DNA of 64,000 bases from IMG/VR virus record IMGVR_UViG_3300047160_009226, positions 64,001 to 128,000 of that record, one strand, 5' to 3'. Below, piece after piece: positions 349 to 9,984 of the stretch (positions are counted from its first letter, which is position 1; every line of letters starts with the position of its first letter). Under the pieces are notes generated by a model, which searched no databases, was not told the DNA's origin, and worked only from the letters and a program-made list of their open reading frames with translations. The position numbers were made by a program, and so were the translations under genes. This DNA comes from a virus. Its lineage: Duplodnaviria; Caudoviricetes.

Positions 349-3306
349 TTACTCTCCAACCTCCTCCTGAGGCGGCGAATTCTCCTCACCGAACACTGAT
401 GAAAGTATATCTTCGGGTTCACCCGCAATCTCCTCTGGTGCCCCGGATTCCTCCAAAGGCCCATTCCCCAACGCTTCAGATTCAAGCCCCTCCATCGAGT
501 CCGTAAGCCCCTCGGCAACTTTTTCTACAACCCTCTCACCCGACTCTGGAGGTGCAACTGCTGCCGCAGCTTCCTGCTCATTCAATTTTGACTCGATTTC
601 ATGAATCCTGTCCAAAATTATCTTCTCCATCGCCGCATAACCTTCATCACCTAGTTTACTCTCCAAAAGTTCCAACCGCTGACCACGATACTCGATTCCG
701 GTCTCTGGATTAGTCCAATAAATCGTCTTACTACGTCGCGTCAACATATTCAATGCATCTGCCTGTTCAATCAAACTATCACGAGACAATACCAACTCCA
801 ATAGACCCTCACTAACCACTCCAGTTGTATCCGTAAGCTCCTCTTCTTCTCCTGTATCAACAACTTCCTCTGTCATCCCCAAAACTTGCGCATGAATCTC
901 ATCAGCCTTATCCCATTGGAGCATCTTCTGGAGTGAATCCAGTATTTCTAAACCTTGACGGCCGTGCGTCTGCCCCTTCAATGCTTGAACCAGCTTTTCC
1001 TTCCCAACTACAGAGAACACTTTTCCCTCAGGAAGCTTGATCTCATATGTTCCTTTGCCCTTTGATGTTGTAATGAGTCTTTGAGTAATAGCCATGTCAA
1101 TAATTGTTCTAACTGTATCAATCCCCTCCCCAAACTGAATATATCCCATAGCAGAACGATACGGAGATCCACACTTATTCTTACTCATCGTCATCTTAAC
1201 CATATTAGCAATTGGAATGTCTTCGCGGTCGCCTAACATTGGATTATATACACTAGCCTTGATAACCTTACTCGGACGCAAGTCAATCATCTGCGACGCA
1301 TAAAATTTAAGTGCAAACCCACCTGGCTGATTTTCTCGATCTGATCCCGGAATCCCTACCGTACTCTTCCCTTTCTGTCCATATCCAATTTGGATGTTAG
1401 ATCGAAGTTGATTCAGAAGTAAGAATGTAACTCCATACTTGGCTGCAAACTTCACCCACCTCGCCAGAAGATCTGAAAACATTCTGGCCTGAAGAGCCAC
1501 CTGCGGATTCTCATCGGACTCACGCTCAAAGGCAGCCTTGGGAACCATAGCCGGAATACTGTCGATGATCCAAATAGCAGGGAAGACTTTCTGCTCTTCG
1601 AAAAGCTTAACCAGATTGTCTGCCATCTCGAATTCATCAGATGGGATGAGCAAGAACCTACCATTATGTTTATGAAGTCCCATCTTCCTGGCATAATTCA
1701 CTGCCATTGAATGCTCATAATCCTGGAACACCACAACGGCATTAGGATTATCTGTGAGTTCCTGATTTGCAAGGTGCATGGCCAATGTCGAATTATGGCT
1801 GATCAACCCTCCTGTCGAATAAAGAGACCCAATAGGCACCGAAAGATCTGCCATCGGCACCTCTACACCTGTCGCTTTAGAATACGTCACTCTATCCAGA
1901 TAAGTATATGGAGACGCCATGAGAGAAAGAGTTTGAAAAATACGATCAAAAGTTTTCTTTTTCAGACTCAATGGAAAAAGCAACTCAGCGACTTCCTTAA
2001 GATTTTCCTTTTCTAGATCCTCTACCTCTATACTCTCGGTCTGTTTCTCAAGATATTCCTCTTTGAGTGCCTCCTTAGCCCGTTCCAAAGTCTGTCGAAG
2101 ATAGTCATGGGTTTCAATTCGATCGATAACAGATTCACCCCTCCAATCCGGTGAAATGTCATACCCGCTCCAAAGAATCTGTTGGGCTGTCTGTTGTGCT
2201 AATCGATCCCTCAGAGCGACTTTAAATTTCTCTCGACTGAATGTATCCAAAGATGGATATATAATCGCACGTACTCCAATGTTTTCCAAAACCATGTGCA
2301 AGGTCTTGGCAACATCCTCCGACTCAAGCTCGATCTCCAGATCATACTGAGTCCACACCCCTCGCGTCAATGTCAGCCCGGCACACCAATGTGATTGAGC
2401 CGTCAGAGATGCTGTTCTTATGATTCCAGGGACCAACCTAATAGCTTCTTGGGCCAATTCCGACCACCGACCATCCTGAATCCGAGCCATCCCTGAAAAA
2501 CGCGAAAACTCCACCACATCCTTATCAAAAGGATCGGCAGAGTCATCTCCTGTCATCTCCTTTGCCCACTGACGAACCATCCTAATCTGACTTGGATTCG
2601 TCACCAGCAAGTAAAGTGAGCGATCTCGAGTCTCAATCCCACACAGGGCTCCAAAAAATGATGCCGTAGAAGATTGCTCTATTGTTATCTCTTCATCGTC
2701 AAGAGGAAGTAACCATTGAAAAATTTTATCTGATGGTCCAGTAACCTTCTGTCCTACTGTCTTGACTAACACATTTCCCAACCGCAAATCCCTCAACATC
2801 ACCCAAGCCAAAACTCCACGATCAGTCAGAGATAAGACTCGATGTGTTTTTGATGCAACTAACTCATTTCCGTCTTCAGTAATAACTCGATGACTTTCCA
2901 ATGTTCCCGCGAAATACATAGCATTCGTCTGAACTCGCTCTGACTCAGCATTCGGAACATAAATTGTCAATTCTGCATGTTGATTCGGCTGTACCTCATC
3001 TCCTACAGTATTCCAGTAAAGCTCATTGGCCAGATCCTGCATCCGGATCAAACCTCTCCCATAGACAGGGATAAACGTGCTAAGACATACACACTTTCCC
3101 GATGACTCGGGTCCCTTGACCACAATCACACGCCCGCGGGGAATCCCCCCACAATTAGTAATCCAGTCCAATGAAGGACACTTAGATTTGATAACCGGTA
3201 TATTTTCTTGAGCATCTAGTGAACGCAGTCTACGGTGTTTTGTCAAATATTCTTTGATATTCCCCAAACCGACCGGATGAAACTTAGGCATAGAGTAATA
3301 ACTCAT
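349..3306 (-). CDS. recA: RecA recombinase containing an intein and a long acidic C-terminal extension
   Basis: GGIPRGRVIVVKGPESSGK/S Walker A; IIDSIPAMVP Walker B; LLNQLR; PGGFALKFYASQMIDLR; KNKCGSPY. Confidence 0.95.
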   Translation of the reverse strand: MSYYSMPKFHPVGLGNIKEYLTKHRRLRSLDAQENIPVIKSKCPSLDWITNCGGIPRGRVIVVKGPESSGKCVCLSTFIPVYGRGLIRMQDLANELYWNTVGDEVQPNQHAELTIYVPNAESERVQTNAMYFAGTLESHRVITEDGNELVASKTHRVLSLTDRGVLAWVMLRDLRLGNVLVKTVGQKVTGPSDKIFQWLLPLDDEEITIEQSSTASFFGALCGIETRDRSLYLLVTNPSQIRMVRQWAKEMTGDDSADPFDKDVVEFSRFSGMARIQDGRWSELAQEAIRLVPGIIRTASLTAQSHWCAGLTLTRGVWTQYDLEIELESEDVAKTLHMVLENIGVRAIIYPSLDTFSREKFKVALRDRLAQQTAQQILWSGYDISPDWRGESVIDRIETHDYLRQTLERAKEALKEEYLEKQTESIEVEDLEKENLKEVAELLFPLSLKKKTFDRIFQTLSLMASPYTYLDRVTYSKATGVEVPMADLSVPIGSLYSTGGLISHNSTLAMHLANQELTDNPNAVVVFQDYEHSMAVNYARKMGLHKHNGRFLLIPSDEFEMADNLVKLFEEQKVFPAIWIIDSIPAMVPKAAFERESDENPQVALQARMFSDLLARWVKFAAKYGVTFLLLNQLRSNIQIGYGQKGKSTVGIPGSDRENQPGGFALKFYASQMIDLRPSKVIKASVYNPMLGDREDIPIANMVKMTMSKNKCGSPYRSAMGYIQFGEGIDTVRTIIDMAITQRLITTSKGKGTYEIKLPEGKVFSVVGKEKLVQALKGQTHGRQGLEILDSLQKMLQWDKADEIHAQVLGMTEEVVDTGEEEELTDTTGVVSEGLLELVLSRDSLIEQADALNMLTRRSKTIYWTNPETGIEYRGQRLELLESKLGDEGYAAMEKIILDRIHEIESKLNEQEAAAAVAPPESGERVVEKVAEGLTDSMEGLESEALGNGPLEESGAPEEIAGEPEDILSSVFGEENSPPQEEVGE
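1792..3093 (-). mobile_element. Intein (434 aa) inserted in the RecA P-loop, with a degenerate LAGLIDADG-like domain
   Basis: Begins with Cys immediately after GPESSGK (CVCLST), ends GLISHN, +1 residue Ser. Removing it restores GKSTLAMHL. Confidence 0.93.
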
Positions 3307-4926: not shown

Positions 4927-5931
4927 TCAGCCTTCCGAGGATGATCCCAGGATGCTTTCCATTCCCTCTTGAGACAAGTCCGGGAATTCCGGAGAGGGAT
5001 TGTGCTCAAGAGCTGTCCGGTTACCATTTCCGGTCACCTCAGTAGCTCCAGAGCCAAGAAGGCCCGCAAAATCAATCTCCTCAGGCATCGTCGTTGCCGT
5101 CGGTGCTCCCTGCTTGCCCTTACCTCCCTGCTGTTGAGCACCCGTTATCATCTCAACGATTTCAGCAATAGTGAAATCTTTGGCGATGAGTTTCGGGAGA
5201 TTGACATACATCTTAGCGGCTTCCTTGATGATCCTTTGCATGACCATCGGATCCTGACGCCACAGAGAAGGGCCAGCCGGAGAGAACTTGGTCCGATCGT
5301 ACAGCCCCTCCTTCTGAGTCCAAACCATGTAATCGTTTTTGATCACTGGATTGGTTCGGCTGTGCTCCTTCCATGCCCGAGTCTTGGCATCATTGATTGA
5401 CCATGGCTTAAGCTCGTATTTGAAGTTGAGCTTATGCCCGCCTCCCACCTCGATCTGTCGATCGGGTGGCAGGATCACCGGTTCGTTTTCGTTGTCAAGA
5501 TCGTACTCCAAAAGTACGAACCCGTAAACGATTTGTGCCGGCTTCTCGATCAGCCCATCTGGAATGCCGTCCTTCCAATAGATGTATCCGACTCCATCGA
5601 TCCAGAACGTCTTGGCTGCTTCAGTTCTGGCGTAAATGATCGTCTTCTTCCCGTTCTCGTCGGTCCAGACCTCCGCCGATGGTGGATTCTTTTTCAGGCT
5701 GTTCGTGAGATTCTCGCGAAGCGCTCTGATGTCCTCGATCTCTTCAATTGCTCTTGCATCCCTAGCTGTGGCCCTCCGTTGCAAATCCTGTGTCGGCACC
5801 AATTGATTCTCATACGCCGTGGCTGGGATATATGCGATTCTCTGTGGCCGTTCCTTAATGCCTGTCACCTTAAAGAATTCGCCGTCTCCCTTGCCCACGC
5901 GCCGATCGTCAAACGAATAGTGTCGTCCCAT
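4927..5931 (-). CDS. Putative single-stranded DNA-binding protein (gp32-like)
   Basis: Aromatic-rich core, flexible Gly/Thr linker and acidic C-terminal tail (EEIDFAGLL...EFPDL); adjacent to ruvC/udg/recA. Confidence 0.5.
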   Translation of the reverse strand: MGRHYSFDDRRVGKGDGEFFKVTGIKERPQRIAYIPATAYENQLVPTQDLQRRATARDARAIEEIEDIRALRENLTNSLKKNPPSAEVWTDENGKKTIIYARTEAAKTFWIDGVGYIYWKDGIPDGLIEKPAQIVYGFVLLEYDLDNENEPVILPPDRQIEVGGGHKLNFKYELKPWSINDAKTRAWKEHSRTNPVIKNDYMVWTQKEGLYDRTKFSPAGPSLWRQDPMVMQRIIKEAAKMYVNLPKLIAKDFTIAEIVEMITGAQQQGGKGKQGAPTATTMPEEIDFAGLLGSGATEVTGNGNRTALEHNPSPEFPDLSQEGMESILGSSSEG

Positions 5932-6014
5932 TGCTATTGCTCCTGATCTAGAAATGAGAGGAAAAACTCGTCATCACGTCTCTAAACTTGCACGTTGCAC
6001 GTCACGTCTGAGTA

Positions 6015-6372
6015 TCCCGAATTCCACACCGCTCGGAATCACACAGTATGTTCAAAAGGTCAAGGTGGTGACAAATTTCATACTGGGCTCAACTTAATCA
6101 CACGCCATCCCCGGACCTTCAAGCGTGTCGCATTACCAGTTACCTGGTCCCCAGTTTTCCTGTTAATTCAGGCACACCACACGGTCCGGCCTATTACGGG
6201 CTTGTACCTTTGCCCTATTCCCCGATCATGAGTTGAGATCATGATCACTGGTTACCCAGTTCTAAACATCAAGGTGGAAGAATACCTGACAGACAGAGAT
6301 GGAAGCGAGGCCAGTTCCCGCGAGGCATCACTCTACTAAAAGCACCTCACCCCATCTCTGCTGTCAGATATT
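6015..6372 (-). ncRNA. Candidate structured non-coding RNA (multi-hairpin, two predicted pseudoknots)
   Basis: Intergenic gap of ~450 bp holding about ten complementary helices, two GUAA tetraloops and two loop-pairing interactions; see finding. Confidence 0.6.
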
Positions 6373-6384
6373 ACGCTTGCTAAA

Positions 6385-7104
6385 TCAATAAGGCACTTCC
6401 TCATCAATGGGAGGAGGAGGTGCGTCAAAATCTTCTTCGAGAGCATCTGGATCATCACTCTCGTCTACTTCTCGTGGAACAACTCCCACATCCACATGTC
6501 CTCGTATATTTCCCTGGTTGCCATTATTCGCCGCTTGTGGTTGTGGGATTCCACCTTTACCATAAATCGCTGCTTCTGTCTCCATCGTTTTCTGTTGCAG
6601 TCGTACTCCAGAATCCAGTTTTCCAAGCTCATCACGTCTATGATCAATGATTCGAAGAAGTGCCTTGAATCTGATAATATCGCTCCTGGCTGTTTTGAGA
6701 TCTTCACTTAACTGAAACTGATTCGTCGGAGTCGATCTCAGAGCAAACTCTGCCTGATGATCACTGACATACCCTTGCTCCACCTGAGTCCAAATATATG
6801 AGTCTCTACTCTTGGCGTTTCTCATTCCAGTCGCATCGGGATCAAAATTTTGATACTCGACATGAGTCCTAAGCTGAACCTCTTCCTCAAGGTCATTGAG
6901 CCACACCTCAGACTCACAAAGAGCCATTTCTACTTTCTCAGACATTTCATTGACGATAGATTTAGCGTCGAGAATCTCAGTGATCTTCTCGGCAATGTAG
7001 CCAGGTCCCATCGTCGTTGGAGTTTTGGACAGATGGATCTTGAGTTTCTCATCAGAAGCCAACCTATCAACATACGCTTTATAATCGTCATCAGAGATCA
7101 TCAC
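6385..7104 (-). CDS. Coiled-coil protein with acidic tail (possibly UvsY-like recombination mediator)
   Basis: Helical heptad pattern, AKSRDSYI segment, acidic C-terminus, position next to ssb/recA; family call is weak. Confidence 0.35.
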   Translation of the reverse strand: MMISDDDYKAYVDRLASDEKLKIHLSKTPTTMGPGYIAEKITEILDAKSIVNEMSEKVEMALCESEVWLNDLEEEVQLRTHVEYQNFDPDATGMRNAKSRDSYIWTQVEQGYVSDHQAEFALRSTPTNQFQLSEDLKTARSDIIRFKALLRIIDHRRDELGKLDSGVRLQQKTMETEAAIYGKGGIPQPQAANNGNQGNIRGHVDVGVVPREVDESDDPDALEEDFDAPPPPIDEEVPY

Positions 7105-7514: not shown

Positions 7515-7963
7515 ATTTCATTTCTCTTTCGTTCTTGTAAGGCTGCTAGGGTCTGATCACGTTCATGATTCTTCAAAACATTACGATCGCGAATAGTATA
7601 CATCAAGTCTTGCGCCCGAATCAAGACTAATTCCTCAAACGAAAAATCAGCTCCAATCTCCGAGCGGACTACTTCGCCTAATTGTAGGCCAGCCAAAGCC
7701 GCGAAGATCACCACATCGCCCGGCTCCAGTTCAATAGGCTCCCGACCTCCAGTTAAATCCACATAACGTCCTGGTCCTGCCGCGATCACCACGCCAGCCC
7801 CGGCAAAACCTTGAGATGACTTTGAATCCCTCTTGTCTGGAAGAAGAATTCCTCCCGCAGTCTGTCTTAAATTAATTTTATACACGATAACGGCGTCATT
7901 TCGTGGAACAAGAGGACACTTGTCAATGACTCTTTTTATTATCTGCGGATCGAAATCAAGCAT
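7511..7963 (-). CDS. groES: Co-chaperonin GroES (Cpn10)
   Basis: PRNDAVIV...TAGGILLPD...[10 protein letters not shown]...LEPGDVVIF. Confidence 0.9.
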
Positions 7964-8756
7964 GAATTTTCACTCCAGTTGTCAACGTCCGCTCTATACT
8001 CCATCCACGACGAAGTCGAACCCTAATCACCTCAACAGGAATCCCTTTAATCTTCGACCATTCTGATCGCGTTCTTTTTTCACCATCATATTCCAGTAAT
8101 ACAGCAGTTGAAAGACTAGCTTCACGTATCTTCTGTTTTGTCTCTTCACTGTGTTTCTTTCCAATGTTTTTTCCGAGCATAGAGCTACTTCTCTTCTGCT
8201 TAGTTTCTTTACTAGGCTTCATTCCAAGATGAGCTTCTCGTATCTTCTGTTTATGTTCTTCACTGAGCTTTTTCCCGAGCTTAGCCTCACGCATTTTCTG
8301 CTTGCTCTCTTCGCTATGCTTCCTCCCGCGATTAGCCTCCGCTATCTTCTCTAATGATTCTTCCGACAGCCGTCCAGATGACGGTCTCAAATTAAATCCA
8401 AATCTCCGGTTTGCCGCCTTAAGTCGATTAATCCATTCATTTTCCAACATGGTCAAGACGTCGGAATTATAAACATACTCCAAGATTCCCCAAACAAAAG
8501 CCTGAGATCCATACTCATTCCATGCCATTTGAAGTCGACGGCAGCGATTTCTGTTTCTATTTAAATTTTTTCTGTGGTCTCCCCATCGTTGACGTAAATT
8601 AACCGTACTCCCAACATACACTCTCTCATCAACCAAACAACGAATCTGATAGATCCCCATCTTGGACTTCTGATCATCCCCCAAAACCCACATCCAGCCT
8701 TCAGGAGTAATGGTCTGACCATCTACGAATACCGTCGGTGCAAAACTTTCTCTCAT
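7956..8756 (-). CDS. Free-standing GIY-YIG homing endonuclease with NUMOD3 repeats and C-terminal HTH
   Basis: [19 protein letters not shown]; [15 protein letters not shown]-type repeats. Confidence 0.9.
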
Positions 8757-9901: not shown

Positions 9902-9984
9902 TACGGACGGTGGGATTCGAACCCACATAGGATCACTCCCGAGGGATTTTAAGTCCCTTGCGTATACCATTCCGCCACGCCCGC
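9902..9984 (-). tRNA. trnL: tRNA-Leu (anticodon TAA), CCA not encoded
   Basis: GCGGGCG/CGTCCGT acceptor stem, TGGCGGAATGGTATACGC D arm, AGGGA-CTTAAAA-TCCCT anticodon arm, long variable arm, GTGGG-TTCGAAT-CCCAC T arm. Confidence 0.95.

Follow-up and report, generated by a model that had tools for sequence, protein, structure and literature searches.

An apparent structured RNA of no known family, carried as a cassette in a variable intergenic region of an uncultured soil jumbo phage

Comparison of an intergenic gap in an uncultured soil jumbo phage with the corresponding region of its relatives suggests that 266 nt of the gap form a constrained orphan structured RNA cassette, which appears to occupy the variable slot of a probable module of UvsY-like and gp32-like genes. 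The window analyzed here is a stretch of 64,000 nt, bases 64001-128000 of a 200.7-kb IMG/VR virus record that is ~91% complete, and coordinates refer to this window unless a contig or the genome is named. The gap is 453 nt long (5932-6384, minus strand), lies between the genes at 6385-7104 and 4927-5931, and had been proposed to encode one continuous RNA with a double pseudoknot. Our analysis resolves it into three separate things: a hairpin (6281-6372), an insert (6012-6277), and a box followed by a U-rich leader and an SD. In the order of the minus strand, the region reads as follows:

6385-7104, minus strand: upstream gene, an open reading frame with a translation of 239 aa, C-terminal tail acidic
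6281-6372, minus strand: long hairpin of 92 nt, about 30 pairs with bulges, then UAUUCUU; from the MFE structure and the alignment
6012-6277, minus strand: insert (RNA cassette), 266 nt, absent at one junction in relatives, with a homolog in contig L010
5967-6011, minus strand: conserved box of 45 nt, tandem ACGTGCAA and three GACGTG, conserved in contigs L002, L007, L010 and L033
5932-5966, minus strand: U-rich leader and SD (AGGAG, 5940-5944), preceding the 334-aa gene
4927-5931, minus strand: downstream gene, 334 aa

The neighborhood of the gap is a DNA recombination and replication module, which includes genes for a RecA/UvsX-like protein with an intein-like insert, a UDG, a RuvC-like resolvase, a GroES-like protein and a homing endonuclease. 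A tRNA-Leu(UAA) at 9902-9984, within 4 kb of the insert, is the only gathering-level Rfam match in the window. The RecA-like protein (985 aa, 349-3306) has a RecA domain match from residue 503 and a weak intein-splicing-domain match over residues 108-505, and is probably an intein-containing UvsX/RecA. The homing endonuclease gene (7956-8756; PHROG 314, E 4e-35) is free-standing and sits between the GroES-like gene and the upstream neighbors; in L002, a P0027-family gene is found in its place at a comparable spot upstream of the Cpn10/GroES gene. Farther away, at 121-132 kb of the genome (57-68 kb of the window and just past its end), the top over-represented 11- and 12-mers are GTATTATCACC, GATGCATTAAG and GTACCTGATCC. 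These were considered as promoters and rejected, since they recur periodically within the coding sequence of several consecutive large genes that are probably fiber-like.

Searches of the 239-aa upstream protein against Pfam, PHROG and PDB sequences returned no match, and a lead that it is possibly UvsY-like comes from its Atlas feature score of 0.88 to clusters in which 17-33% of members carry PF11056 (UvsY). The 334-aa downstream protein has 24 homologs, every one from soil metagenomes, and gave no match in Pfam, PHROG and PDB sequence searches or in PDB and PHROG profile searches. Its AlphaFold model is poor (pLDDT 59) and Foldseek found nothing for it in the PDB at E <= 0.001. Over 160 residues the low-confidence model does align with chain 2atq_B of RB69 gp32 (Z 4.0), some low-scoring SSB rows are found in BFVD, and an Atlas score of 0.86 links the protein to a cluster with PF08804 in 24% of members. 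These leads, all of them weak, make a divergent gp32-like SSB a plausible possibility, so that the SSB-like label given to the gene in the original prediction is retained here as a lead and is not established.

For comparison, seven related soil-phage contigs were fetched and aligned (L002, L003, L007, L009, L010, L033 and L034); protein-anchored searches for further related phages found none in IMG/VR and only five metagenome loci. The long hairpin had been counted as part of the same RNA as the helices that follow it, and this grouping was not borne out by the alignment. Four of the contigs (L002, L003, L007 and L009) keep the hairpin and show compensatory substitutions in it, for example AGAGAUGG/CCAUCUCU to AGGGAUGG/CCAUCCUU; because relatives lacking the rest of the gap structure, the insert included, still carry it, we treat it as a separate element. 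A terminator scan recognized no U-run terminator at the hairpin and none between the insert and the downstream gene. This element is probably a terminator, processing or stabilizer hairpin of the upstream gene. The hairpin is also largely responsible for the folding signal of the gap as a whole, which is clear (z -2.86, with 0 of 100 shuffles as good) and nearly as strong on the other strand (z -2.70). The folding energy test thus favors the gap as a unit, largely through this hairpin, and is modest for the insert alone, where z is -1.37 and 16 of 200 shuffles are as good.

On the other side of the insert, the box, U-rich leader and SD are kept in the related contigs with or without the insert. 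RNAalifold found no consensus RNA structure in the box and leader, and a sigma-70 scan recognized no promoter at the box and none for the insert itself. The box occurs once in the 200-kb record, for which reason a repeated or ECF-type promoter was rejected; it looks like a gene-specific DNA site, probably a promoter or operator of the gp32-like gene. In two contigs (L010:2396-2470 and L033:150-215) a second GTGCAAGTTT-like unit is found together with a small hairpin, with a compensatory difference between them (GCUUC/GAAGC and GCCUC/GGGGC).

The insert is missing from five of the seven related contigs (L002, L003, L007, L009 and L034) at a clean junction between GGTATTCTT and TC. An assembly artifact is excluded, because independent soil runs yielded short contigs that bridge both of its borders with zero differences; the four soil DNA runs examined yielded only identical short contigs and no natural variants. 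It is single-copy in the 200.7-kb genome and has neither a target duplication nor terminal repeats. The slot is empty in L002, L007 and L034, and its cargo otherwise differs from phage to phage: in the window it holds the RNA of 266 nt, in L010 the homologous RNA together with an ORF of 249 aa, in L004-L006 extra ORFs (ORFs of 249 and 166 aa are among the slot cargos), and in L033 an unrelated insert of ~130 nt. Because L033 holds another insert and L004-L006 and L010 hold extra ORFs, the slot between hairpin and box is plastic.

The L033 insert (L033:14-150, Ga0210392_10232268, the same as L029) lies at exactly the same junction and can be drawn with an 11-bp closing stem, UUCUCGGAAG/CUUCCGAGAA, four hairpins within it, and UCUUUUU after it. 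No Rfam match and no homolog among the collected loci was found for this insert, which is possibly another RNA cargo of this slot. The 249-aa ORF beside the L010 copy was considered as a partner protein and rejected, since its family, an ordinary one among phage genes, has members elsewhere in L002 and L032 that are not accompanied by the RNA, and none in this genome. At the 5' border of the insert described here, the sequence starts with CCACCUUGA (6269-6277, minus strand), which is repeated at 6060-6068, shortly ahead of the segment that forms the closing helix on its 3' side; the L010 5' border does not have the first copy. This repeat may be a recombination footprint or may be due to chance, a 9-mer repeat being expected in roughly 1 in 8 sequences of 266 nt.

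The single homolog of the insert occupies positions 2075-2400 of L010, a soil contig from Logan, directly upstream of the same box and gene and in the same orientation; the gp32-like proteins of L010 and the window share 82% identity. The core of the insert (its positions 10-251) is 84.6% identical between the two copies. Since third codon positions of the flanking genes are only 55-60% identical between the window and L010, while first and second positions are 87-92% identical, the insert evolves as a constrained sequence, and its core is, by this comparison, conserved well above the neutral level. Both phages share an identical block of 50 nt, which runs from the second base of H1 through the 8-bp hairpin into the junction after it, and changes outside the compensated sites cluster in loops. 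No reading frame of the insert is shared with L010, where its only long frame is lost, and on these grounds we regard the insert as non-coding. Only two copies are known, both from one family of uncultured soil phages, and the 85% identity could partly reflect exchange between phages and not constraint.

The complementary segments of the original prediction are all present at their positions on the minus-sense RNA. Their support was assessed with RNAalifold and a helix-by-helix count between the window and L010, which amounts to one pairwise comparison. The elements of the insert, from the 5' end of the RNA, are these:

6260-6268, minus strand: 5' strand of the closing helix (UGUUUAGAA), pairs with 6049-6057
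6247-6260, minus strand: H1, GUAA-tetraloop hairpin, nearly invariant in L010, where base 6260 differs and is kept as a wobble pair
6224-6246, minus strand: H2, 8-bp hairpin, stem kept in L010
6198-6215, minus strand: H3 (GGGC/GCCC), stem kept, four loop positions differ in L010
6183-6189, minus strand: strand CCGGACC of candidate pairing PK1, complementary to GGUCCGG at 6111-6117
6175-6180, minus strand: strand GUGGUG of candidate pairing PK2, complementary to CACCAC at 6065-6070
6159-6172, minus strand: H5 (CCUG/CAGG), stem kept, one loop change in L010
6135-6148, minus strand: H6, variable arm with a GUAA loop, replaced in L010 by a two-hairpin branch of 72 nt
6111-6117, minus strand: strand GGUCCGG of PK1, complementary to CCGGACC at 6183-6189
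6065-6070, minus strand: strand CACCAC of PK2, complementary to GUGGUG at 6175-6180
6049-6057, minus strand: 3' strand of the closing helix (UUUUGAACA), pairs with 6260-6268
6027-6048, minus strand: 3' hairpin (UACUGU...GCGGUG), directly after the closing helix

Three features are supported by the L010 sequence. The first is the 9-bp closing helix, which was missed in the original prediction: five of its pairs are unchanged, two differ on one side (U.G to C-G and G.U to A-U), two are compensatory (A-U to G-C) and none is broken. Of 1000 column shuffles, 0.9% contained a helix of 9 bp or more with two or more compensatory pairs. The second is the variable arm H6, whose stem changes from ACCAG/CUGGU to ACCGG/CCGGU by a compensatory A-U to G-C exchange; replacement of its loop by a larger branch is the behavior of a peripheral variable arm. 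The third is the 3' hairpin at 6027-6048, with one compensatory pair (C-G to U-A), two one-sided changes and none broken. It excludes the hairpin originally placed at 6015-6038, which remains a possible alternative fold. In the GUAA hairpin H1, the 8-bp hairpin and the hairpins at 6198-6215 and 6159-6172, stems are invariant and changes are confined to loops. The G.U pairs of the closing helix and 3' hairpin, together with the GNRA loops, fit only minus-sense RNA and so identify the minus strand as the one that encodes it. When every possible helix of at least 6 bp is counted, the compensatory pairs number 3 against 2.66 +/- 1.78 in column shuffles and are not in excess, and we regard the statistical significance of the covariation in this alignment as moderate. 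Examination of a homolog for covariation thus supports the closing helix, the variable arm and the 3' hairpin, and leaves one of the predicted host stems broken and the total of compensatory pairs at the level of the shuffles.

Two further observations concern individual arms. The loop of the 8-bp hairpin, CUCAACU (6231-6237), is perfectly complementary to AGUUGAG (6088-6094) in a conserved single-stranded stretch; both segments are invariant in L010 and form a candidate loop-to-strand tertiary pairing that was not listed originally. The 72-nt branch that replaces the H6 loop in L010 (L010:2176-2262) contains CUGAUGA and GAAAC around a three-way junction, an arrangement reminiscent of a type II hammerhead. 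A hammerhead was rejected for this branch, because one junction has a length of about 5-10 nt where 1 nt is expected, and because searches with hammerhead models gave no match at E <= 10.

The double pseudoknot is not supported by this comparison. The host stem of PK2 (6044-6050/6079-6085) is broken at four of its seven pairs in L010, and the PK2 pairing itself is invariant there and hence uninformative on covariation. For PK1, L010 retains six of seven pairs and has C.A in place of the pair at the end, which is likewise uninformative; the MFE structure draws this pairing as a nested helix, and it crosses another helix only if the stem 6123-6128/6100-6105 (ACACGC/GCGUGU, invariant in L010) forms. 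Complementary 6-mer pairs in the insert number 16 against 8.2 +/- 3.8 in shuffles, of which 18 of 500 reach 16, and complementary 7-mer pairs number 5 against 2.0 (49 of 500). Because 6- and 7-mer complementarity is only mildly enriched, a single long-range pairing of 6 or 7 bp is expected by chance. One crossing pairing within the invariant core is possible.

The other part of the original prediction, that the RNA may be new and resembles none of the common RNA classes, was supported, as the Rfam 15 covariance models returned only noise on the gap and the insert. At E <= 10 the gap and the insert alone matched SNORD88 (14 bits) and snR55 (13 bits), and the separate hairpin gave a weak mir-156 score of 26.4 bits against a gathering score of 62; the L010 copy likewise matched no Rfam family at E <= 10, and ARAGORN found no tRNA or tmRNA in the insert. 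A segment in L010, GAAAGUCCGGGG, and one in the window, CCAGGUAAC, presumably resemble motifs of E. coli M1 RNA. An RNase P-like reading was rejected, as the strand order is wrong for the P4 helix and no RNase P model matches. Retron msr/msd, TnpB/IscB omega RNA and IS110 bridge RNA were likewise rejected because no partner gene is present in the ~91% complete record, in which searches found no RVT_1 and no IS110 transposase, and one sub-cutoff zinc-ribbon match of 16 bits that lies 16 kb away.

Searches for further homologs were also negative. A blastn search of the gap against 50,697 phage records found no homolog, BLAST against 401 Planctomycetota genomes found nothing in the genomes covered, and an nhmmer search of the whole genome and all collected loci with the two-sequence profile found no further copy. 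Exact and degenerate patterns from five conserved blocks identified no homolog in IMG/VR, the 16 matches of one such scan being at the level of chance and in coding DNA, and with similar patterns every match in GTDB genomes lay in coding sequence, e.g., of Gly/Tyr-rich repeat proteins.

The reading we favor, to which we give about an even chance of being correct, is that the insert is a self-contained selected RNA of ~240 nt, carried as an optional cassette, transcribed with the module and acting as an accessory RNA through its fold. The slot would be bounded by the conserved long hairpin that ends the upstream, perhaps UvsY-like, gene on one side and by the promoter- or operator-like box of the putative gp32-like gene on the other. 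The predicted fold would be closed by the 9-bp helix, which joins the 5' end to a segment near the 3' end; the conserved GUAA hairpin and the 8-bp hairpin would form its first branches, followed by an invariant core containing CCGGACC/GGUCCGG and GUGGUG/CACCAC, and the length-variable arm and the 3' hairpin would complete it. Transcription with the module may occur by read-through past the long hairpin or from an unrecognized phage promoter. The RNA would act through its fold, most likely by binding a protein, and would not be the essential translational operator of the family. A stand-alone accessory RNA of this kind seems more likely than a cis-acting leader, and a selfish element and functionless filler are minor rivals.

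The leading alternative is nevertheless a leader function, in which the insert would be an accessory cis-acting part of the 5' UTR of a read-through transcript and would modulate translation or mRNA stability of the gp32-like gene. By analogy with T4 gene 32, such a leader could serve as a nucleation site for the SSB-like protein or stabilize the mRNA from its 5' side. The T4-type gene 32 translational operator consists of a 5' pseudoknot and an unstructured A/U-rich leader, and the arrangement here is alike in that a structured RNA precedes, in the same orientation, a gene that is possibly gp32-like, and in that the SD follows a U-rich stretch. In both phages the insert is directly upstream of the same gene with no recognizable terminator between them, and the weak gp32-like leads for the downstream protein are also consistent with this role. 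However, the five related contigs that lack the insert retain the box, U-rich leader and SD, and because of this the insert cannot be the operator of the family; the proposal of an elaborate SSB autoregulatory leader is not supported on the same grounds. Unlike the T4 operator, the insert is about eight times larger, an unrelated insert takes its place in L033, and a compact H-type pseudoknot is only a candidate. It is separated from the start codon by 80 bases, the DNA-conserved box included, and from the U-rich tract (5932-5966) by that 45-nt, G+C-containing box, for which no RNA structure was detected; if the box is a promoter, the insert would lie outside the mRNA altogether. The insert also has no anti-SD (CUCCU), and its closed architecture with paired ends resembles that of a stand-alone RNA. 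A leader role for the insert is therefore considered rather unlikely, though it is the strongest of the competing explanations.

A second alternative, which we consider improbable, is that the insert has no function as RNA and is filler DNA that recombination at the conserved flanking hairpin and box has shuffled between phages, or else functions at the level of DNA, for example within a replication origin, so that its helices are incidental. The modest folding score of the insert, an overall compensatory-pair count no higher than in column shuffles, the evident plasticity of the slot, and the replication and recombination functions of the flanking genes are all in line with filler. However, filler would not be expected to keep 85% identity where neutral sites keep 55-60%, to carry a 50-nt invariant block, or to accumulate substitutions that avoid stems or compensate in them. 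The arm that has been enlarged by insertion while its stem was kept and compensated, and the strand asymmetry given by the wobble pairs, likewise speak for the accessory RNA that we favor.

Least probable, in our view, is a selfish or mobile RNA with the foot of the hairpin as its target site; it could be an intron that is degenerate or atypical, or an insertion that bears a ribozyme. This would account for precise presence or absence at one junction, for the unrelated structured insert at the same junction in L033, and for the homing endonuclease and intein nearby in the genome. The exon-like flank UAUUCUU can moreover pair with an internal GGGAAUA, ending in U.G; yet this guide is 55 nt inside the element past two hairpins, and no equivalent of such a P1-like pairing exists beside the L010 copy. 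The insert resembles phage group I introns in its size of ~250 nt, its GNRA tetraloops, a possible crossing long-range pairing and its status as an insertion relative to related genomes. Unlike them, it gave no match to RF00028 or any other group I or II intron model at E <= 10 with permissive filters over 281-701 nt. It ends in ...GGGAUAC, with C in place of the terminal G, and has only 5 nt (GGAUG) between GGUCCGG and GCGUGU, too short for a P8-type hairpin; a group I intron was rejected on these three counts. The closing helix joins both ends, which is not the group I layout, and the insert does not lie within a gene, a non-coding location in which splicing would bring no benefit. Its single copy, bare borders and the lack of an RT, IS110 or convincing TnpB gene in the record also argue against mobility.

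Returning to a selected RNA cassette, two groups of known systems offer partial parallels. In the PeSL model of Arbiol, Comeau and Krisch, variable cassettes in hyperplastic regions of T4-type phages are reportedly flanked by promoter stem-loops. The slot described here is alike in that its cargo varies among related phages, or is missing, at a single junction that has a conserved stem-loop on one side and a conserved promoter-like sequence on the other. It differs in that the cargo is a non-coding structured RNA, not a small ORF, and in that the putative promoter box occurs only once in the genome and is not a repeated module. GOLLD, ROOL and HEARO are large orphan structured RNAs linked to phages or prophages, and all have Rfam models. 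The insert shares with them a phage-borne, multi-helix structure with GNRA loops, no assigned function, and a tRNA gene close by. Unlike them, it has no covariance-model match, is much smaller at ~240 nt, and has two representatives only.

More speculatively, the insert may be the founding member of a new class of phage RNA with a pseudoknotted, invariant core of ~150 nt, acting on its own, either with ribozyme activity or by binding protein as a decoy or scaffold for the recombination module or for counter-defense, and moving as a cassette at a hairpin-marked hot spot at which the L033 insert would be a second cargo. We hold this broader proposal to be doubtful. With two copies known and its pseudoknots at the level of candidates, the insert is best described as a credible candidate, not a discovery.

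In conclusion, phage genomes are compact, and 266 non-coding bases kept at coding-like conservation in two diverged jumbo phages should have a role. Taken together, the UvsY lead, the gp32 lead and the RecA/UvsX-like gene would represent a T4-style UvsY-gp32-UvsX module in a very divergent soil jumbo phage. Few structured RNAs have been described from uncultured soil phages, and if its fold is confirmed the insert would be an orphan RNA family beside recombination genes, and an example of a "moron" cargo in a plastic intergenic slot that is an RNA rather than a protein.
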